Assembly: GCF_056746865.1 (NCBI RefSeq)
Contig: NZ_CM163382.1
DNA: 64,000 nucleotides
Direction: 5' to 3' (one strand)
Shown here: one piece after another, positions 3,001-24,826 of the stretch
How the letters are laid out: every line of letters begins with the position of its first letter
Numbering within the stretch: the first letter of the stretch is position 1
The notes under the pieces: generated by a model
Databases searched by the model: none
The model's input: only the letters and a program-made list of their open reading frames with translations
Told to the model about the DNA's origin: nothing
Translations under genes and position numbers: made by a program

Positions 3001-6000
3001 GGCGGCCGATGACATTATTAACGCTGCCGAAGCGGGCAATGCGCAAACCATCAGTGGGCAGGTGACGGGTGCCGCGGCGGGCGACACAGTTACCGTTACG
3101 CTGGGTGGCAACACCTACACCGCCACGGTGCAGGCTAATTTAAGCTGGAGCGTTAGCGTGCCGGCGGCGGATATTCAGGCCATCGGCAATGGTAATCTCA
3201 CAGTAAACGCCTCGGTCACTAATGGCGTGGGCAACACCGGCAGCGGCTCGCGCGATATCACGATCGATGCCAATCTGCCTGGCTTGCGGGTCGATACCGT
3301 GGCGGGCGATGATGTTATTAACAGCATTGAGCACAATCAGGCGCTGGTGATAACAGGTAGCAGCACCGGGTTAACGGCGGGAACGGCGTTAACGGTCGAG
3401 ATTAACAACGTTACTTATGGCGCGACGGTATTAGCCGACGGCACGTGGAGCCTCGGTATTCCGGCGGCAGACGTCAGCAACTGGCCTGCGGGTACGGTGG
3501 ATATTACGGTAAGCGGCACCAACAGCGCCGGAACAACCTCTACCATTACCCATCCGGTTACCGTCGATCTGGCGGCGGTCGCCATCACCATTAACACCCT
3601 TTCCGGCGATGATGTGATCAACGCCGTGGAGAAAGGCGAAACGCTGGTCGTAAGCGGCAGCACCAGCGGTGTGGAAGCTGGGCAGACGGTGACCGTCACC
3701 TTTGGCGGTAAAAATTACACCACCACTGTGGAAGCCAACGGCAGCTGGACGGTGAATGTGCCGCCTGCCGATCTCGCTGCGCTACCGGACGGCGCGGGCA
3801 ACGTGCAGGCGAGCGTCAGCAATATTAACGGCAACAGCGCCCAGGCCGATCGCGCGTATAGCGTCGATGCCACCGCGCCGCTTATTACTATCAACACCAT
3901 CGCCAGCGACGATACTCTTAACGTGAGCGAAGCGGGCGCGGGGATCACCATCAGCGGCACCACCACGGCGCAGGCCGGGCAGACGCTGACCGTCACGCTC
4001 AATAACAACACGTACCAGACCACCATTCTCGCGGATGGCACCTGGAGCGTGAACGTTCCGGCAACGGATTTAAGCGGATTAACCGCCAGCAGTTATACCG
4101 TGACTGCGACGGTGAGCGACAAAGCGAGCAACCCGGCAAGCGCCGATCATGCGCTGGCGGTGGACGTTACCGCTCCGGATCTCACCATTAACACCGTCGC
4201 GGGCGATGACATCATCAACGCTATCGAACACGGGCAGGCGCTGGTGGTGAGCGGCACCAGCACGGGCGCGGCGGCAGGCGATGTGGTGACCGTCTCGCTC
4301 AACGGCAAAAACTACACCACCACGCTGGATGCCTCTGGTAACTGGAGCGTCGGTATCCCGGCGGCAGATGTGACGGCGCTGGCAACCGGAAGCCAGACCA
4401 TTACTGCCAGCCTGAGCGATCGCGCGGGCAACAGCGACAGCGCTACCCATAATGTCACCGTTGATCTTAGCGGCCCGACGCTGACCATCAGTACCGTCTC
4501 CGGCGACGACATCATCAATAATGCGGAGAAAACTCAGGATCTGACCATCAGCGGCGGCTCCAGCGGTCTGGCGACCGGCACCACGGTCACCGTGATGTTG
4601 AACGGCCTGGCGTACAGCGCCACCACCGATAGTTCCGGCAACTGGAGCGTTACCGTGCCTGCTTCGGCGGTCGGTGCCCTGGGCGAGGCGGTCTATTCGA
4701 TTAGCGCCAGCGCCACCGACAGCGCGGGCAACAGCGGCAGTACCACCCATACGGTGAATGTCGAATCGCTCCTGCCTGGGGTGATCATTAATACCGTGGC
4801 GGGCGATGACATTATCAACGCCGCTGAAATCGTTGTGGCGCAGACCATCAGCGGTCAGGTCACGGGAACGGCGGTTGCCGGGAATACGGTGATTGTCACC
4901 ATTGGCGGCAATCAATATAACGCCACCGTGCAGTCAGATTTAAGCTGGAGCGTCAGCGTACCGGCGAACGTTTTGCAGGCGCTGGGTAACGGTGAACTGA
5001 CCATCAGCGCCTCGGTGACCAATTCCGCAAATAATACCAGCACCGCGACGCACGATATCGTGATAGATGCCAACCTGCCAGGTCTGCGCGTCGATACCGT
5101 GGCAGGCGATGATGTGATTAACAGCATCGAGCACACTCAGGCGTTGGTGATCACCGGTAGCAGTAGCGGACTGGCGGCGGGCGCGGCGTTGACGGTGGTT
5201 ATCAATAGCGTCACCTACGGCGCAACGGTACTCGCCGATGGCAGCTGGAGCGTCGGTGTTCCGGCGGCAGATGTCACAAACTGGCCTGCGGGAACGGTCA
5301 ATATTGCCGTTTCTGGCACCAATACCGCCGGAACCACAACCAGCATTAGCCATCCGGTCACGGTCGATCTCGCGGCCGTGGCGATTACCATTAACACCCT
5401 TTCCACTGACGATGTGATTAATGCCGCCGAAAAAGGCAGCGATTTGCAGCTCTCCGGCACCACCTCCGATGTGGAAGCGGGGCAAACCATCACCGTTATC
5501 TTCGGCGGCAAAAGCTACACCACCACGGTTGCCGCGGGCGGCACCTGGGGGCTGACAATCCCAGCAGCCGATCTCGCAACCTTGCCTGACGGCGCAGCAA
5601 ACGTCCAGGCCAGCGTCAGCAACGTCGCAGGTAACAGCGCCCAGGCAACGCATGCTTACAGCGTCGATGCCACCGCGCCTTCCGTTACCATCAACACCAT
5701 CGCCACGGACGATATTCTTAACGCCGACGAAGCGGGATCGGCGCTGACCATCAGCGGCACCAGCACGGCGGAAGCCGGGCAGACGGTGACCGTGACGCTA
5801 AACGGCGTCAATTACAGCGGCAACGTGCAGGCAGACGGGAGCTGGAGCGTCAGCGTCCCGACCGGCGATTTAGCTAACCTCACTGCCAGCCCCTATACGG
5901 TGAGCGCAGCGGTCAGCGACAAAGCCGGAAATCCGGCCTCGGCGACGCATAACCTGACGGTGGATCTTGTTGCGCCGGTCGTTACCATTAACACGGTAGC

Positions 6001-9000
6001 GGGCGATGACATCATTAACGCCACAGAACACGGACAGGCGCAGATTATCAGCGGCTCGGCAACGGGCGCGACGACCGGTAACACGGTGTCCGTGACGATT
6101 GGCACGACCACTTACACCACCGTGCTGGACGCCAACGGCAACTGGAGCATCGGCGTGCCTGCCAGCGTGATTTCCGCACTGGCGCAGGGGAATGTGACCA
6201 TTACCGCCACGGTCACCGACTCCGCAGGCAACAGCGGCACGGCCTCGCACACTGTCAGCGTGGCGCTCGGCGCGCCGATACTGAGTATTAACACCATCGC
6301 CGTTGATGACATCATTAATGCCACGGAGAAAGGCGCGGATCTGGCGATTTCCGGAAGCAGCAACCAGCCTGCGGGTACGCAGATAACCGTTACGCTCAAC
6401 GGGCAAAATTACACCACCACTGCCGATGCATCCGGTAACTGGAGCGTGACCGTTCCGGCGTCACGGGTGAGCACCCTCGGTGAAGCCACTTACACGGTGA
6501 CTGCCGCCGCCACTGACGCCGATGGCAACAGCGGTTCCGCCAGCCATAACGTGCAGGTTAATACCGCGCTGCCGGGCGTCACCATTAACGTTGTCGCGAG
6601 CGACGATATTATTAACGCTGCCGAAGCGGGCGCGGGCCAGAGCATCAGCGGGCAGGTGACGGGCGCGGCAGCGGGCGACACGGTAACCGTCACGCTCGGC
6701 GAGGCGACTTACACTGCCACGGTGCAGGCGAATTTAAGCTGGAGCGTCGATGTTCCGGCCTCCGCGCTACAGGCGTTGGGCAACGGTGAACTGACCATTT
6801 CGGCTTCGGTAACGAACAGCGTAGGCAATACCGGCAACGGCACGCGCGAAATCACCATCGACGCGAATCTCCCCGGTCTGCGGATTGACACCGTGGCGGG
6901 CGATGATGTGGTCAACATTATCGAGCACGGGCAGGCGCTGGTGATTACCGGCAGCAGCTCCGATCTGGCAGCGGGCAGCAACGTCACGCTGACCATTAAC
7001 GGGCAAACCTATGTTGCGGCGGTACTGGCGGATGGCTCATGGAGCGTCGGCGTTCCGGCGGTGGATGTCAGCGCCTGGCCTGCGGGGACGGTCACGATTA
7101 CAGCCAGCGGCAACACCACCGCCGGAAACCCGGTGAGCGTTACGCATCCGGTGACTGTCGATCTCACTGCGGTGGCGGTCAGCATCAACGCCATTACTGC
7201 CGATGACGTGATTAACGCTGCCGAAAAAGGCGCGGCGTTAACGCTCTCTGGCAGCACTTCTGGTGTCGAAGCCGGGCAAACGGTCACCGTCACCTTTGGC
7301 GGCAAAACCTACACTGCAAGCGTCGCGGCGAATGGTTCCTGGAGTACCACGGTTCCGGCGACAGATATGGCAGCCCTGCGTGATGGCGATGCCAGCGCGC
7401 AGGCCAACGTCAGCAATGTTAACGGCAACAGCGCCACCACTACCCACGCTTACAGCGTCGATGCTACCGCGCCAACGGTGACCATTAACACCATTGCGGG
7501 CGACGACATTCTTAACGCCGCCGAAGCCGGAGCGGCGCTGACCATCACTGGCAGCAGCACGGCGGAAGCGGGGCAGACGGTGACCGTCACCCTCAATGGT
7601 GCAAACTATACTGGCACCGTACAGACGGACGGCAGCTGGAGCATCAGCGTACCGCCAGCCGACTTAAGCGCCCTGACCGCCAGCAACTACACCGTTAGCG
7701 CGGCGGTGAGCGACAAAGTCGGAAACCCGGCCTCGGTTAATCACAACCTGACGGTGGATACGTCTGTTCCGGTCGTCACCATCAACACGGTGGCAGGCGA
7801 TGATGTGATCAACGCGACGGAACACGCCCAGGCGCAGATTATCAGCGGCTCCGCCACGGGTGCGGCAACCGGCAGCGCCGTGACGGTGACTATCGGCACA
7901 AACACCTTTACCACCGTACTGGATGCCAGCGGTAACTGGAGCGTCGGCGTTCCGGCAAGCGTCGTCTCGGCGCTGGCGAACGGCACGGTGACCATTAACG
8001 CCAGCGTCACCGATGCCGCCGGAAACAGCGGCAGCGCTACGCATCTGGTGACGGTCAATACTGGCCTTCCGTCAATTACCTTTAACGCCATCAGCGGCGA
8101 TAACGTCCTGAACGCCGATGAAAAAGGCCAGCCGTTGACCATTAGCGGTAGCAGTACGGGGTTGGCGACCGGCGCACAGGTTACCGTCACACTCAACGGT
8201 CATAACTACAGCGCTACCACCGACGCGGCGGGCAACTGGACGTTAACCGTGCCGGTGAGCGATCTGGCGGCTTTAGGCCAGGCCAACTATATCGTCAGCG
8301 CCAGCGCCACCAGTGCGGCAGGCAACATCGCCAGCAGCCAGGCGAATTTACTGGTCGATAGCGGCCTGCCGGGCGTCACCATCAACACCGTGGCGGGCGA
8401 TGATATTATCAACGCCGCCGAAGCCGGGGCCGATCAAACCATCAGCGGGGTGGTCACTCGTGCCGCCGCTGGCGATACGGTTACCGTCACGCTGGGCGGC
8501 AACACTTACACCACCACGGTACAGGGCAACTTAAGCTGGAGTATCAGCGTTCCGGCAGCCGATCTCCAGGCGTTGGGCAATGGCGATTTGACCATTAACG
8601 CTTCGGTCACCAACGCGAATGGCAATACGGGCAGCGGTACGCGGGATATCACCATTGACGCTAACCTGCCAGGGCTGCGCGTGGATACGGTAGCGGGCGA
8701 TGATATCGTCAACAGCATTGAACACGGGCAGGCGCTGGTGATCACTGGCGGCAGTAGCGGCCTGAATGCAGGCGTGCCATTGACGATCACGATTAACGGC
8801 ACGGCTTATTCCGCCACGGTACAGGCAGACGGGAGCTGGAGCGTCGGCATTCCGGCGACAAACGTCAGCGCATGGCCTGCGGGGGCGTTAACCGTTGACG
8901 TGGCAGGCCAGAGCAGCGCCGGAAATCCGGTCAGCGTCAGCCATCCGTTCACCGTCGATTTAACGGCGGTGGCAATCAGCATCAACACCGTTGCCAGCGA

Positions 9001-19414: not shown

Positions 19415-20586
19415 ACGGACAACTGCAATACAACCGTGGCCTGACTGAACCCCGCTTGCCGCGTTCGGCGCTGGCGGTACGCGTTACCGCTGTGATGCTG
19501 CTCTGTTTTCTCGGCTGGGCGTGGTACTTCCAGCTTGATGAAGTCACCACCGGCAGCGGCACGGTAGAACCCTCCGGGCGCGAACAGGTGGTGCAGTCGC
19601 TGGAAGGCGGAATTCTGTATCATCTCGACGTCAAGGTTGGCGATATTGTTGAACAGGGCCAGCCACTGGCGCAGCTTAACCGCACCAAAACGGAATCCGA
19701 CGTCCAGGAAGCAATGTCGCGGCTGTACGCGGCGCTGGCAACCTCGGCGCGGCTGCGGGCGGAAGTGAGTAATAAACCGCTGGTCTTCCCTGACGAACTG
19801 AATAAATTCCCCGAACTTATCGAGTCGGAAACGGCGTTGTACAACACTCGCCGCGATGGGCTGAACAAAGCCACCACCGGGCTGACGCAGGGGATTAGCC
19901 TGGTCAACCGCGAACTGGCGATGACCCAGCCGCTGGTAAAACAGGGGGCGGCGAGCAGCGTTGAAGTGCTGCGCCTGCAACGCCAGGCCAATGAACTGGA
20001 AAACAAACTCAGCGACGTGCGCACGCAATACTACGTTCAGGCGCGCGAAGAGTTAGCAAAAGCCAATGCGGAAGTGGAAACCCAGCGTTCGGTGATCCGT
20101 GGACGGGAAGACTCCCTCACCCGGCTCAACTTTACCGCGCCGGTACGTGGCATTGTTCAGGACATTGACGTCACCACGGTTGGCGGCGTTATTGCCCCCG
20201 GTGGTAAACTGATGACCATCGTGCCGCTGGATGAGCAACTGCTGATCGAGGCAAAAATCTCCCCGCGCGATGTGGCGTTTATCCATCCGGGGCAAAAATC
20301 GCTGGTGAAAATAACCGCCTACGATTACTCCATCTACGGCGGCCTGCCGGGAGAAGTGGCGGTGATATCACCAGACACCGTGCAGGATGAAGTACGGCGC
20401 GATGTTTATTACTATCGGGTGTACATTCGCACTTTCAGCAACCATCTGGAAAATAAAAGCAAACAGCAGTTTCCGATATTCCCCGGTATGGTGGCGACGG
20501 TCGATATCCGCACCGGCAAAAAAAGCGTGCTGGATTATCTGTTGAAACCCTTTAACAAAGCACAGGAGGCGTTGCGCGAACGATGA
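19411..20586 (+). CDS. T1SS periplasmic adaptor (HlyD-family membrane fusion protein)
   Basis: 391 aa. N-terminal transmembrane helix ([20 protein letters not shown]), long coiled-coil-prone central region, C-terminal beta domain; start overlaps the ABC transporter stop. Confidence 0.85.
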
Positions 20587-20990
20587 ACATTAGCGATGTA
20601 GCAAAAATTACCGGCCTGACCAGCAAAGCCATTCGCTTCTATGAAGAGAAGGGGCTGGTGACGCCGCCGATGCGCAGCGAAAATGGTTATCGAACCTACA
20701 CGCAGCAGCATCTCAACGAACTGACCTTACTGCGCCAGGCGCGCCAGGTGGGCTTTAACCTGGAAGAGAGCGGCGAACTGGTGAATCTGTTTAACGATCC
20801 GCAGCGTCACAGTGCCGACGTCAAACGTCGCACCCTGGAGAAAGTGGCGGAGATCGAGCGACATATCGAAGAACTGCAATCCATGCGCAACCAGCTGTTG
20901 GCGCTGGCGAATGCCTGCCCTGGCGATGACAGCGCCGACTGCCCGATTATCGAAAATCTCTCCGGCTGCTGTCATCATCGGGCGGGGTGA
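20583..20990 (+). CDS. cueR: Copper-responsive MerR-family regulator CueR
   Basis: 135 aa, [25 protein letters not shown]...[24 protein letters not shown], recognised as E. coli CueR with its C-terminal Cys metal-binding motif. Confidence 0.95.
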
Positions 20991-20993
20991 AAA

Positions 20994-21197
20994 TCAGTTA
21001 ATCCCCGTTTGCACCGAAAGAATATGCTGCAAACTTTCTACCATAATGCGCCCCGACTGAAATAAGCCTTCCTGGATTTCGTTGTTAACATTCACAGCGT
21101 GAACCAGGGAGGCTAATAACACCACTTGCAAGAAGGCAAAAATAAACGCACCGATAATCATAATATGCGTCAGGGGGATTTTCCTTTGCTCTTTCAT
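20994..21197 (-). CDS. Small single-pass membrane protein (67 aa), last gene of the autotransporter operon
   Basis: Hydrophobic helix IMIIGAFIFAFLQVVLLASLV. Its ATG overlaps the stop of the upstream lipoprotein gene (ATGA), suggesting translational coupling. Confidence 0.45.
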   Translation of the reverse strand: MKEQRKIPLTHIMIIGAFIFAFLQVVLLASLVHAVNVNNEIQEGLFQSGRIMVESLQHILSVQTGIN

Positions 21198-21616
21198 TTT
21201 AAATAACCCACAAACTGACCTTCCTTCATTAAGGCGACTTTTCCCGTGTGGTGATAAACAATGACGTTATAAAGACCTGACTGATAAACAGTGGCATCTT
21301 TATTGTCTTCATCAATTGCACATAATGAATCATTGAGATAAGCAAAGTTCTTACTGCTCATTCTAAAGGTCATGCCAAATCCTTTATAAATAGATTTTTT
21401 AGCGGCCTGGGCATGTTGTGCGGCTTCTGCATTTTTAAATGCCTGCGCTTCTGATGCACTTAAAATAGCCGCCTGACGCTGTTGTTCTGCGAGATAACAG
21501 GTGTCATGGCTGACGCCCTGCGCCTGGCAATCTGCGATGCGGGAAGTGGGTGAACTACAGCCAGCCAGTAATATAACCGCCAGCAGGGAAAACGATTTAA
21601 TGGAGCTATTCATCAT
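21194..21616 (-). CDS. Lipoprotein (140 aa) encoded immediately downstream of the trimeric autotransporter
   Basis: Signal peptide with lipobox LLAGC|SS; same strand as and 53 bp downstream of the autotransporter gene. Confidence 0.7.
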   Translation of the reverse strand: MMNSSIKSFSLLAVILLAGCSSPTSRIADCQAQGVSHDTCYLAEQQRQAAILSASEAQAFKNAEAAQHAQAAKKSIYKGFGMTFRMSSKNFAYLNDSLCAIDEDNKDATVYQSGLYNVIVYHHTGKVALMKEGQFVGYLK

Positions 21617-21669
21617 TGTTAACCTTAAATAATGTACGGAAAATTGCGAATAAGAAATTGCTGTTAAAA

Positions 21670-23454
21670 TTAGAACGAATATCCCACGCCGACACCCGCA
21701 CCGAAATCAGATTGTGTATCCGCAGAAATACCTGCTTTAAGTACCGTATGCGTTCCGGCATTAAAAGATGTTCCTACAGACACCGCAGATTCACCGTTGT
21801 ACGTTCCCGCTCCCGCTGACACCATCATCAAGTCACCGGTTTTCACCTGTGGTTGTGAGGCGATAGCGATGGCAGATGCAGTTCCCGCATTGGCTTCTTT
21901 ACGATTGTCCTCAACTTCGTTTTTCAGAGAATCGAAATGGTTATTGAGCGTAGTAATCTGCTGGCTATTATCCGCTACTCGTTTTTGCGTGTTGCTTAAC
22001 TGCTGATGCGTTTGGGTTACGTCTTGTGTCAGGCTGTCAATTTGTTCATGCGTTTGTGTTGAGTCTTGCGCCAGACGCTGAATTTGTTCCCCGTACTGCA
22101 CACTATCGATATGCTGTTGCGTTGCCTGGTTAGTCGCCAGAGTATCTATTTTTTGTTTTTGTTCTGCTGCAGTACGCGCATTCGCATCATTTTGTGCTCT
22201 CAGTCCGGCGTTAACCATCTCTTGATAATGTGCGTTGGTCTGGGCATCGCCAAGTGCGGAAACCGTTTTTTGCGTCGCGTCGATTTGTTTCTGCTGATCG
22301 TCCATTTGTTGCTGCTGGGTGTCAGCTTGTGCCTGTTGCGCATTGGCAGCGGCTGTCTGTCTGGCGTCAATCATGCTCTGATATCGGGCGGCAGTCTGCA
22401 CATCCCCGGTGGCGGCAACGGTTTTCCGGGTTTCGTCGAGTTGTTGCTGCTGGTCAGCAATATCGCTGCGGTTCTGTTCGATATTATTTTTGTTTTCTGT
22501 CACAGCACCGGAAAGTTTGACGCCGTTCATCAGAGCGGTGTTGGCGTTAGCGTTGGCATGGTCAGCCGTTGACTGGGCATGTGCGACATCGCCTTTTATG
22601 TTGGTGACGTCTGACTGCACTGCGGAGACATCATTACGGGTGTCGGCGATGGCGGCTTTATTGGCATCAATATCCGTCTGCGCCACCATAATGGCGTGCT
22701 GCGCGTCATCAGCTTTCATTGAAGCCCAGTTGGCGACATGTTGTGCGTCCTGAATGGCGGTATCCTGCCCGTTGTCGCGGACGATCTGTTTTTGCTCGTT
22801 TGATGCCAACAGTTTCTGCTGGTCGGCAATATCGCTGCGGTTCTGTTCGATGTTGTTTTTGTTTTCTGTCACAGCACCGGAAAGTTTGACGCCGTTCATC
22901 AGAGCGGTGTTGGCGTTAGCGTTGGCATGGTCAGCCGTTGACTGGGCATGTGCGACATCGCCTTTTATGTTGGTGACGTCTGACTGCACTGCGGAGACAT
23001 CATTACGGGTGTCGGTGATGGCGGCTTTGTTGGCATCAATATCCGTCTGCGCCACCGTGATGGCGTGCTGCGCGTCATCAGCTTTCAGTGAAGCCCAGTT
23101 GGCGGCATGTTGTGCGTCCTGAATGGCGGTATCCTGCCCGTTGTCGCGGTCGGTCTGCGCTTGATTGGTTATCGGGTTCAGCGTATTGGCGGGCTGTACG
23201 GGAGAGGCAGCTGTATTTTCCTGAGGTGTCGTTGTCCGGTAATCATGCGCAATCAGATAATTTTGTGCGGCTGCACTATTCCCTGTCCTTTCTAAAAATC
23301 GACCAATTTTCTGATCAATTTCCGATTGCGACATTCCTGGCTGGATTGCCGTTAATTCTGTCGTTGCCGCCTCAACAGTATCACCCGCAAACGCAGATGG
23401 ACTTACCGCGGTAGCAACAACGACAGCCAGTAAAGACAGCTTTACAGTTTTCAT
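21670..23454 (-). CDS. Trimeric autotransporter adhesin-like protein with YadA-like C-terminal anchor (~594 aa)
   Basis: Sec signal MKTVKLSLLAVVVATAVSPSAFA; long Q/A/D-rich coiled-coil-like stalk with internal repeats; C-terminus GTASAIAIASQPQ...GAGVGVGYSF matches the YadA-type anchor pattern. ATG chosen at 23454; the ORF track extends to a TTG at 23472. Confidence 0.8.
   Translation of the reverse strand: MKTVKLSLLAVVVATAVSPSAFAGDTVEAATTELTAIQPGMSQSEIDQKIGRFLERTGNSAAAQNYLIAHDYRTTTPQENTAASPVQPANTLNPITNQAQTDRDNGQDTAIQDAQHAANWASLKADDAQHAITVAQTDIDANKAAITDTRNDVSAVQSDVTNIKGDVAHAQSTADHANANANTALMNGVKLSGAVTENKNNIEQNRSDIADQQKLLASNEQKQIVRDNGQDTAIQDAQHVANWASMKADDAQHAIMVAQTDIDANKAAIADTRNDVSAVQSDVTNIKGDVAHAQSTADHANANANTALMNGVKLSGAVTENKNNIEQNRSDIADQQQQLDETRKTVAATGDVQTAARYQSMIDARQTAAANAQQAQADTQQQQMDDQQKQIDATQKTVSALGDAQTNAHYQEMVNAGLRAQNDANARTAAEQKQKIDTLATNQATQQHIDSVQYGEQIQRLAQDSTQTHEQIDSLTQDVTQTHQQLSNTQKRVADNSQQITTLNNHFDSLKNEVEDNRKEANAGTASAIAIASQPQVKTGDLMMVSAGAGTYNGESAVSVGTSFNAGTHTVLKAGISADTQSDFGAGVGVGYSF
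22440..23160. repeat. Near-identical ~369-bp tandem duplication (two copies) inside the autotransporter stalk
   Basis: Sequence from ctgctggtcagcaatatcgctgcggttctgttcg at 22447 recurs at 22816 with few mismatches; encodes the duplicated ~123-aa block DNGQDTAIQDAQH...NIEQNRSDIADQQ. Confidence 0.85.
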
Positions 23455-23472
23455 GCATTTTTTCTCTTTCAA

Positions 23473-23820
23473 AGTAAGTCACATATTTGTTTCTATAAGC
23501 AACGTAAAACGTTGTTATAAGAATTAATCTGCGTTGCAATTTGATCGAAATCTACGCCGCCATTTGTGTGATGTAAAGCGCATTTTTGTCTGGTGTAAGC
23601 GTAAACATCACCAATAAGAAACAAAAAATGTTTCTTATATAAATAAAATCGAAAATCATTTTGTGCTCTTTCAATGTAAAAAAGAGTAAAGACTTGTTTT
23701 GATAAGCGAAATAAATTCTGTTTCTGGACTAAACGTGAAGCGGTTCCTGATGTGTGCTAAAATGCGTTTCTTTGATAAATCTCAATTTTTAAGAGGTTTA
23801 CGCCAGGCAGGAAAATTTAA
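23473..23820. promoter_or_regulatory. AT-rich divergent control region between the autotransporter operon and a small ORF
   Basis: About 350 bp of markedly AT-rich non-coding DNA; perfect palindrome aagaaaca-aaaaa-tgtttctt at 23616-23636. Confidence 0.4.
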
Positions 23821-24183
23821 ATGAATGAATTTGAGAAGATTTTTAATGAAATGAATCTGGACCGGGCATTGCTACCGATCCTTTTTCGTTCGAACCGGTC
23901 AACAGTGTGGAAATATTTAAGTGGCGATAGTACGGCTCCTGCCTCAGCTATGTCACTGATTATGCTGTTGCAGTTAATCCAGAAACGAAACCCCGATCTG
24001 TTAGCCGAATGGTTAACGCTTTCTGATTTCACCATTCCGCCAGAAGTTTACCTGGACCAGCCTGATTACTGGAAAGGGTGGGTGTATACGCAACACAAGG
24101 TCAATAAAAACGTCCTGGAATATCTAAAAAAACATTATCCGGATGAAGACCAAAAAAACATGAATAAAGGTAGTGACGAGTAA
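23821..24183 (+). CDS. Hypothetical small protein (120 aa), possible helix-turn-helix regulator
   Basis: AT-rich ORF divergent from the autotransporter; segment SNRSTVWKYLSGDSTAPASAMSLIMLL loosely resembles an XRE-type HTH. No confident family assignment. Confidence 0.4.
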   Translation: MNEFEKIFNEMNLDRALLPILFRSNRSTVWKYLSGDSTAPASAMSLIMLLQLIQKRNPDLLAEWLTLSDFTIPPEVYLDQPDYWKGWVYTQHKVNKNVLEYLKKHYPDEDQKNMNKGSDE

Positions 24184-24194
24184 TTTGCCAATGC

Positions 24195-24365
<171 letters not shown>

Positions 24366-24367
24366 CA

Positions 24368-24826
24368 TCAGGCGATGACCGCACGGATGATCAGCGTTAT
24401 CCCTTCTATCGCAATGACTTCAACATGCGTACCTGCACCGAGATCCTCGCTGGCGCTGACAGGCCATGAACTGTCACCGACGCGCATATGACCTCGCCCG
24501 TTGACCAGCGGAGATTCCAGCACAAAACGTCGGCCAATAAGCTGCTGCCCGCGCTGGTTTAAATGACTGTCGCTGTGCTTTTGTTCGCGCACCCGCCGCG
24601 ACAACCATTTCCACCACAGCCAGGCGGCGAGCAGCGTCAGGACGGCAAACATCACCCCTTGCCACTCCCAACCCAGCGGCACCAGCCAGACCACCAGACC
24701 GGTAATCACCGCTGCCACGCCGCTCCACAACAAATAACCATTTCCGCCCAGCATCTCGGCTGCCAGCAGCAACCCGCCGAGACTGAGCCAGAAAATATGT
24801 GGATGAACGACCATTAACTCCATCAT
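24368..24826 (-). CDS. ybbJ: NfeD-family inner membrane protein YbbJ
   Basis: 152 aa, hydrophobic N-terminal half; overlaps the upstream stomatin-like gene, consistent with the qmcA-ybbJ pair. Confidence 0.85.

Follow-up and report, generated by a model that had tools for sequence, protein, structure and literature searches.

What is the block of DNA that separates cueR from ybbJ in some Escherichia coli chromosomes, and what do the proteins encoded by it do? In this study, this question was addressed in a 64,000-nt stretch of E. coli DNA (contig NZ_CM163382.1; hereafter, the window), in which the original prediction had placed, at positions 20994-23472, a compact operon for a trimeric autotransporter (TAA), a lipoprotein and a small membrane protein. 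The 4.4 kb used as the query was 100% identical to the sequence of strain CFSAN061770 (L001). The block is not new; it is the already catalogued islet O-island 29 (OI-29), also known as S-loop 43, of enterohaemorrhagic E. coli (EHEC) O157:H7. We consider it probable that the islet consists of a three-gene operon, encoding a headless TAA fibre, an outer-membrane lipoprotein and a 67-aa inner-membrane protein, plus a divergent gene for an XRE-type helix-turn-helix (HTH) protein, and that the lipoprotein is the cognate partner of the TAA.

The predicted insertion between cueR and ybbJ relative to K-12 was borne out. In a K-12-type genome (L010), the stop codons of cueR (20583-20990 in the window, plus strand) and ybbJ (24368-24826, minus strand) abut with a spacer of 0 nt; the 3.4-kb block is therefore extra DNA. 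In blastn comparison of the window with this empty site, identity ended at 20990 and restarted at 24377, and the islet was set at 3386 bp (20991-24376), from the cueR stop to the 3′ end of ybbJ. The arms of the primers used by Yang et al. for deletion of OI-29 mapped to 20953-20990 and 24377-24415. Four open reading frames (ORFs) were intact in the window, namely those for the 67-aa single-pass membrane protein (20994-21197), the 140-aa lipoprotein (21194-21616) and the 594-aa TAA (21670-23454) on the minus strand, and that for a 120-aa protein (23821-24183) on the plus strand. All three minus-strand genes were thus found where they had been predicted; the predicted extent had omitted the divergent 120-aa gene and a repetitive extragenic palindromic (REP) element. 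The autotransporter and the insertion stood as proposed, and what had been missed was the published identity of the block as OI-29 and the assignment of its TAA gene as gmrA, encoding a regulator.

The GC content was 46.6% for the islet, 56-58% for its flanks, 51% for the TAA gene and 32% for the 366-bp spacer between the divergent genes (23455-23820), which is presumed to be the promoter/regulatory region. Promoter-like matches in this spacer were no commoner than in shuffled sequence and no promoter was located; a terminator scan likewise gave matches at chance level. The REP-derived element (24241-24318, minus strand), lying between the 120-aa gene and ybbJ, matched Rfam naRNA4 in cmscan (71.9 bits, E=7.8e-12) and was the cause of the median of 22 matches per E. 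coli genome given by the 4.4-kb query. The ratio of nonsynonymous to synonymous substitutions (dN/dS) was 0.03 for the lipoprotein gene versus Escherichia whittamii, 0.16-0.2 for the 67-aa ORF (0.16 versus E. whittamii) and 0.12 for the 120-aa ORF versus Pseudocitrobacter-like L006, the sole comparison in this case. These low values mark the small islet genes as real genes, not chance ORFs.

In O157:H7 Sakai, the corresponding genes are labelled ECs_0546 (putative lipoprotein), ECs_0548 (adhesin) and ECs_0549; ECs0548 was described by Ogura et al. (2007) as a Saa-like protein in S-loop 43, absent from K-12 (PMC2323221). In EDL933, OI-29 is a 2,643-bp block containing z0638, z0639 and z0640 (PMC5826968), which are orthologous to the lipoprotein gene (ECs0546), the TAA gene (ECs0548; z0639 being gmrA) and the 120-aa gene (ECs0549), respectively; the 67-aa ORF is absent from the original EDL933 annotation. 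The islets of the window and O157:H7 are alike in insertion site, gene order and all four ORFs. Identity is approximately 96% for the DNA of the lipoprotein and 67-aa genes and 99% for the 67-aa proteins, and the TAA anchors are identical save two substitutions. In contrast, the N-terminal 100 residues of the TAA have diverged, and the window protein has 594 aa versus 338 aa in O157, owing to a 236-aa insertion formed by two 123-aa repeats; the islet is 3386 bp long in the window and 2643 bp in O157:H7.

The first codon of the TAA ORF (21670-23472, minus strand) is the TTG at 23472, and translation probably starts six codons in, with the ATG at 23454, giving 594 aa. As read from the sequence, the N-terminus, MKTVKLSLLAVVVATAVSPSAFA followed by GD, has the n-region, h-region and A-x-A site of a textbook Sec signal peptide (residues 1-23; 23386-23454, minus strand), with predicted cleavage after AFA. 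Alignment showed that a signal peptide of this type is also kept in the O157 orthologue. The C-terminus ends with GAGVGVGYSF, and residues 535-594 (21673-21852, minus strand), comprising four β-strands and the terminal Phe, matched Pfam YadA_anchor (PF03895) over model positions 1-60 of 60 (E=1.4e-11); the search of the C-terminus suggested with the original prediction thus gave a match to the full model. The O157 orthologue gave E=2.6e-11, and the PDB anchors of Hia and AtaA matched the window protein at E ~1e-6 (AtaA, E=1.6e-6). The passenger is polar, rich in A, Q, D, T and N, and devoid of Cys, with Pro confined to a short linker at residues ~71-95. No head, neck or stalk family was found in Pfam at E<=10, no PDB match was found for the N-terminal 109 residues, and the remaining matches were sub-threshold ones to coiled-coil proteins only (SMC, Rad50, Lpp, sigma-C and P22 gp26). 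The NCBIfam matches to SMC, Rad50 and DndD were rejected as coiled-coil artefacts, scoring 20-33 bits versus cut-offs of 245-1087. By its anchor and signal peptide, the 594-aa protein is a short headless TAA; its surface display and trimerisation are predicted.

A 369-bp tandem repeat (22443-23157, minus strand), detected by Tandem Repeats Finder and protein alignment with 1.9 copies 96% identical, encodes the two 123-aa stalk modules lacking in the O157 allele. Compared with PDB, the repeat unit gave weak likeness to trimeric coiled coils (Lpp, sigma-C and P22 gp26; E 0.06-0.3), none of it significant. If the passenger is a continuous coiled coil, the repeats would approximately double the length of the fibre relative to that of the O157 allele. 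In the RefSeq annotation of CFSAN061770, made by the Prokaryotic Genome Annotation Pipeline, the TAA was called as a 349-aa YadA-like family protein (window 21670-22719; L001 7171-8220). The start chosen for this long allele falls within the repeat region, and the signal peptide and half of the passenger are dropped. Such truncated annotation would hide the gene from adhesin surveys.

The 140-aa lipoprotein has a lipobox (LLAG, then Cys20) followed by Ser-Ser. With Ser at position +2, sorting to the outer membrane is predicted by the E. coli Lol rule. The AlphaFold2 model (pLDDT 80.5) consists of a short helical hairpin with two conserved Cys residues, a helix at residues 37-65, which gave a weak Lpp/alanine-zipper match (E 0.016), and a C-terminal eight-stranded β-barrel. 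Its relatives in AFDB50 are all unnamed lipoprotein entries from Enterobacterales. NCBIfam matches to TraV, XAC1346 and Lpp fell far under the cut-offs, were restricted to the signal peptide and helix, and were rejected as noise.

The link between lipoprotein and TAA was followed in one genome per species, scanned with an alignment of the lipoprotein family; 47 loci were obtained, and all their ORFs were searched with hidden Markov models of the anchor and of the lipoprotein, 120-aa and 67-aa proteins. A gene with a YadA anchor lay directly upstream of the lipoprotein gene, on the same strand and 43-592 bp away, in 15 of the 47 loci, which belonged to E. whittamii, Pseudocitrobacter, several Enterobacter, Lelliottia, one uncultured member of the Enterobacteriaceae, Yersinia aleksiciae and six Rahnella species. 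Further pairs were seen in Pseudocitrobacter faecalis, where two TAAs precede one lipoprotein, and Enterobacter asburiae. In Rahnella woolbedingensis (L019 4155-8745), the pair is duplicated in tandem, in the order TAA (4155-5951), lipoprotein (6001-6420), TAA (6555-8279) and lipoprotein (8332-8745). The chromosomal context of the pair varies by genus. In two Pseudocitrobacter-like loci (L006 4138-6671 and L013 4139-6668), a four-gene module of HTH, TAA, lipoprotein and 67-aa genes is located between fetA and qmcA, opposite the E. coli site across the qmcA-ybbJ operon. The TAAs beside the lipoprotein genes are all short (286-728 aa) and differ in their passengers, in contrast to the conserved lipoprotein. 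Since the adjacency is conserved in at least six genera and includes one tandem-duplicated pair, the lipoprotein is likely to be functionally linked to short headless TAAs. The original prediction had proposed that both small proteins may be biogenesis or display factors; this result backs a functional link for the lipoprotein, and the 67-aa protein is lineage-restricted.

Two features of these families were observed in passing. In three Rahnella species (L018 3699-5933, L019 4155-5951 and L021 4224-5954), the TAAs have a conserved in-frame N-terminal extension of ~40 aa directly before the signal-peptide core, with the motif ERNxQIIAAYTAGxxNKxELARYFGVSAsTVRRVLAG; it is not ESPR-like, is absent from E. 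coli, and matched helix-turn-helix families in Pfam (CENP-B_N, 4.5e-4; HTH_Tnp_ISL3, 1e-3; also Mor, HTH_28, Sigma70_r4 and HTH_7). A possible remnant of this extension 5′ of the E. coli TAA gene was rejected, as the resemblance was too weak and out of frame. An N-terminal tip motif common to the window, Rahnella and Yersinia TAAs is not claimed either, the alignment being suggestive but weak. In Buttiauxella, Kluyvera, Atlantibacter and others (L029-L051), many small lipoproteins matched only the N-terminal lipobox and the helical C-x9-C module (GVSxDTCY); they stop after ~67 aa or bear other C-terminal domains (AFDB labels including DUF2845, RcnB and DUF1471), which suggests that this part is a reusable N-terminal module.

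The 67-aa protein has one hydrophobic span (residues ~11-33), and the stop codon of its gene lies 3 nt from that of cueR. Its ATG overlaps the TGA of the lipoprotein gene (TTAAAATGAAAG), an ATGA arrangement pointing to translational coupling. No match was found in Pfam or NCBIfam. Homologues in Pseudocitrobacter (L003, L006 and L013) are 34-42% identical and keep the ATGA overlap, and the invariant residues shared with E. coli lie in the membrane span and the C-terminal tail. In the corresponding position, Rahnella has a different, soluble ORF of 74-80 aa with ATGA coupling, Pantoea yet another, and Enterobacter none.

The AlphaFold2 model of the 120-aa protein is all-helical (pLDDT 83). Its top Foldseek matches in PDB were all XRE-type HTH proteins, with HigA2 giving a probability of 0.98, TM 0.68 over 63 columns and E 0.4, followed by P2 C, Aca2, C-proteins, the MqsA C-terminal domain and lambda repressor (all E >=0.4). 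The family profile found HigA2 in PDB by hmmsearch (E=0.6), and MqsA_antitoxin was the Pfam match (E 0.12). An HTH of the XRE/HigA2/MqsA type at residues ~3-65 is therefore regarded as probable. In nine species-level loci, the 120-aa gene and the TAA gene are divergently oriented, and it is plausible that the 120-aa protein, a candidate local regulator, is the DNA-binding protein of the islet.

Taken together, the islet would comprise two divergent transcription units. The first product of one unit, the TAA, would be exported by Sec and held in the outer membrane by its YadA-type anchor, and would form on the cell surface a polar trimeric coiled-coil fibre ending in a small N-terminal tip. The second, the lipoprotein, would be sorted to the outer membrane, carrying its small β-barrel domain, and the third would be the 67-aa inner-membrane protein. 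The other unit would encode the XRE-type HTH protein, most likely a regulator of the shared AT-rich control region. The lipoprotein, unrelated to SadB, may stabilise the short TAAs, assist in their assembly or serve them as a functional co-factor. Gene structures, membership of the anchor family, the limits and population frequency of the islet, synteny between genera and purifying selection are results of the analysis; surface display and trimerisation of the TAA, sorting of the lipoprotein to the outer membrane, the grouping of the genes into an operon, regulation by the HTH protein and any mechanism of partnership are what we infer.

Several observations weigh against this reading. In the TAA, a crude test of heptad periodicity was significant only at residues ~449-518, next to the anchor. 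The methods agree on an HTH in the 120-aa protein, yet every E-value exceeds 0.1. Full-length homologues of the lipoprotein occur without a nearby TAA in Phytobacter, Erwinia rhapontici, Raoultella terrigena, Atlantibacter hermannii, Serratia silvae and three further loci (L005, L008 and L009); the partnership is therefore not obligate, and the S. silvae locus looks like a module from which the TAA has gone. Outside Escherichia and Pseudocitrobacter, the 67-aa protein is missing or has another protein in its place, which makes it an accessory rather than a core component. As regards phenotype, adherence to HeLa and Caco-2 cells was unchanged in a ΔOI-29 mutant (Yang et al. 2018, PMC5826968), and the motility phenotype reported there for the TAA gene, a genetic result that stands and is considered below, is not explained by a passive surface fibre.

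Other explanations can be given for the lipoprotein and for the islet as a whole. The original prediction had pointed to SadB, and the two small proteins might be export factors of that type, the lipoprotein trimerising at the inner membrane and passing three TAA chains to the β-barrel assembly machinery (BAM). A lipoprotein encoded in one operon with a TAA has a precedent in enterobacteria (PMC3953254), the adjacency to TAAs is conserved, and the layout, with a lipid anchor leading to a helix (residues 37-65) and then a β-domain, is loosely similar. As homology, however, the likeness fails and was ruled out: neither SadB/YajI nor any other PDB sequence matched the lipoprotein at E<=10, by phmmer with the single sequence or with the profile. 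SadB has Asp at +2 and is retained in the inner membrane, its gene lies upstream of sadA, and it has nine heptads and a MATH-like sandwich (PMC3953254); the islet lipoprotein has Ser at +2, a gene 3′ of that for the TAA, 140 aa versus ~213 aa and one helix of ~30 residues, and some of its homologues are found without TAAs. We regard this explanation as unlikely. Distinctly unlikely, too, is that the lipoprotein is an MliC/PliC-type lysozyme inhibitor, or some other host-defence factor that acts independently of the adhesin and only travels with it. The resemblance of its barrel to MliC concerns the fold only, because profile-profile comparison by hhalign with E. coli MliC aligned the signal peptides alone, and a small antiparallel barrel is a common fold. 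Pfam MliC was not matched at E<=10, MliC lacks the N-terminal Cys-helix module, and membership of the MliC/PliC/ACP inhibitors was rejected. The tight and repeated same-strand adjacency to TAAs, the duplicated pair included, would not be expected of an independent factor. Finally, a decaying remnant without current function is extremely improbable. The islet is missing from many lineages, K-12 included, one genome has an IS1 insertion in it, and other strains (L011 791-2034 and L012 791-1469) carry a different, frameshifted ORF (~390 aa, 0.7-1.2 kb) exactly at the cueR/ybbJ junction. Against decay, the four ORFs are intact in the window and in most of the 1416 islet-bearing genomes described below, purifying selection is strong (dN/dS 0.03-0.2), and the module is conserved across genera. 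Transcripts of the three OI-29 genes were also detected in Dulbecco's modified Eagle's medium, at 20-96 reads per kilobase per million, and the genes were silent in attached bacteria (PMC5826968).

The remaining alternative concerns the TAA gene, the product of which has been described as GmrA, a transcription factor acting directly on fliA. Yang et al. (2018) reported that ΔgmrA and ΔOI-29 mutants lose motility and flagella, that motility was lost in eight strains, that motility was restored by gmrA and ~300 bp upstream alone, and that an electrophoretic mobility shift assay (EMSA) with His6-GmrA and chromatin immunoprecipitation (ChIP)-qPCR with GmrA-3xFLAG were positive on PfliA (PMC5826968). 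The claim of direct activation is repeated in several reviews. On the other side, when mapped to the O157:H7 genome (L002), the gmrA (z0639) deletion arms flank, without mismatch, exactly the coding sequence annotated as YadA family autotransporter adhesin (4202-5218). The complementation primers map to 4201-5537, and the segment bounded by the cloning primers runs from ATGAAAACTGTAAACGTAGCTTTA (MKTVNVAL, in the signal peptide) to VGYSF-stop, the last strand of the barrel. The gmrA-03 arm, made for another strain, abuts the stop of the window TAA gene (21632-21669), and the z0638 and z0640 arms flank the lipoprotein and 120-aa genes, respectively. GmrA is, by these primers, the protein with the Sec signal peptide and full YadA anchor described above. 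No significant DNA-binding family was found for GmrA or the window TAA in Pfam or NCBIfam. For O157 GmrA, Pfam gave YadA_anchor only, the sole family with DNA in its name being TMF_DNA_bd (E=0.16), on a coiled-coil segment, and NCBIfam gave SMC and Rad50 coil matches of ~20 bits versus cut-offs above 500; such coiled-coil look-alikes probably explain the DNA-binding domain called on GmrA from CDD. The EMSA construct carries His6 ahead of the signal peptide, and the ChIP construct has 3xFLAG on the terminal Phe of the barrel. Since export depends on Sec targeting and insertion on the C-terminal aromatic β-signal recognised by BAM, such tags are expected to divert the protein from its normal pathway and to mislocalise both constructs. 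On this evidence, a directly acting transcription factor is quite improbable.

The conflict is relevant to EHEC regulatory networks and to genome annotation, GmrA being listed as a direct fliA activator and the gene encoding a Sec-exported, YadA-anchored autotransporter. With its arms at L002 3657-3695 and 4118-4156, the z0638 deletion of that study removed L002 3696-4117, equivalent to 21195-21616 in the window, and with it the start codon of the 67-aa gene; this mutant is probably a double knock-out.

A wider reading can be put forward tentatively. A global screen for TAA helpers returned TpgA and SadB only and required a YadA head domain (bioRxiv 10.64898/2026.01.22.700529), because of which headless TAAs would have been excluded from it. 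The lipoprotein family might thus be a third dedicated class of TAA partner, after SadB and TpgA, specific to short headless coiled-coil TAAs across Enterobacterales and moving as a mobile module with an XRE-type regulator. As a corollary, GmrA would be a secreted autotransporter affecting motility indirectly, through envelope signalling or the neighbouring HTH protein, and not by direct binding to the fliA promoter. We regard this reading as less likely than not. With two such helpers currently known, the adjacency of TAA and lipoprotein offers a candidate for a new autotransporter partner.

In the population, 1416 of the 5426 complete E. coli genomes searched had the lipoprotein and 67-aa genes, in every case on the chromosome; 285 genomes had the long repeat-bearing allele, by the criterion that >=80% of the 4.4-kb query was covered. 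The locus as such is ordinary: this common accessory islet has been on record since the O157 genome papers, and about one in four complete E. coli genomes has it. Its residual interest lies in the label of transcription factor given to GmrA versus the autotransporter encoded, and in the candidate family of autotransporter partners.

By these alignments, the cueR/ybbJ junction is a multi-allelic hot spot. The strains with unrelated cargo (L011 and L012) have the REP element and the ybbJ end in common with the window. The last codons of ybbJ (24368-24376) differ, YbbJ ending in IIRAVIA in islet-bearing strains and in HIRAVSS in K-12; in the genomes compared, the C-terminus of YbbJ co-varies with the state of the islet. 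Upstream of cueR, the window contains a giant adhesin ORF, intact and no shorter than 5743 aa, which is annotated as SiiEA/BapA-related and accompanied by its type I secretion ABC and HlyD genes (17-20586), the HlyD stop overlapping the cueR start (20583-20586). In the K-12-type genome, a 98-bp remnant of the HlyD gene (L010 289-386) precedes cueR; as this remnant alone is left, K-12 lost this system (OI-28) by deletion.

Saa, the protein to which ECs0548 was likened, is also a short E. coli TAA with a YadA-type anchor. Repeat number varies in the Saa stalk. The window TAA gene is chromosomal, whereas Saa is plasmid-borne. In tblastn of the window TAA versus plasmids, only the anchor region matched (residues ~470-594, at most 58% identical), the passenger giving no match; no direct alignment to Saa was made. 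The 120-aa protein resembles XRE-type HTH regulators (HigA2, the MqsA C-terminal domain, P2 C, Aca2 and C-proteins) in the predicted fold of residues ~3-65. It differs from them in that its gene has no toxin partner, in an extra C-terminal helical domain of ~55 residues without match, and in a family limited to a few Enterobacterales.

Similar in plan are SadA/SadB of Salmonella and the UpaG/EhaG loci, in which one operon likewise encodes a TAA and a small lipoprotein; these, too, are limited to Enterobacterales and were lost together from K-12. Apart from the opposite gene order, downstream of the TAA in the islet and upstream for sadB, the two lipoproteins are unrelated: the one in the window is predicted to reside in the outer membrane and has a small barrel, whereas SadB resides in the inner membrane and combines a long coiled coil with a MATH-like sandwich. 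The fibre of SadA is very long, with multiple domains and heads, in contrast to the short, headless TAA of the islet. AtaA/TpgA of Acinetobacter also has an accessory periplasmic protein encoded beside the TAA; TpgA, a helper that binds peptidoglycan, has BamE-like and OmpA-like domains, neither of which was detected in the window proteins.

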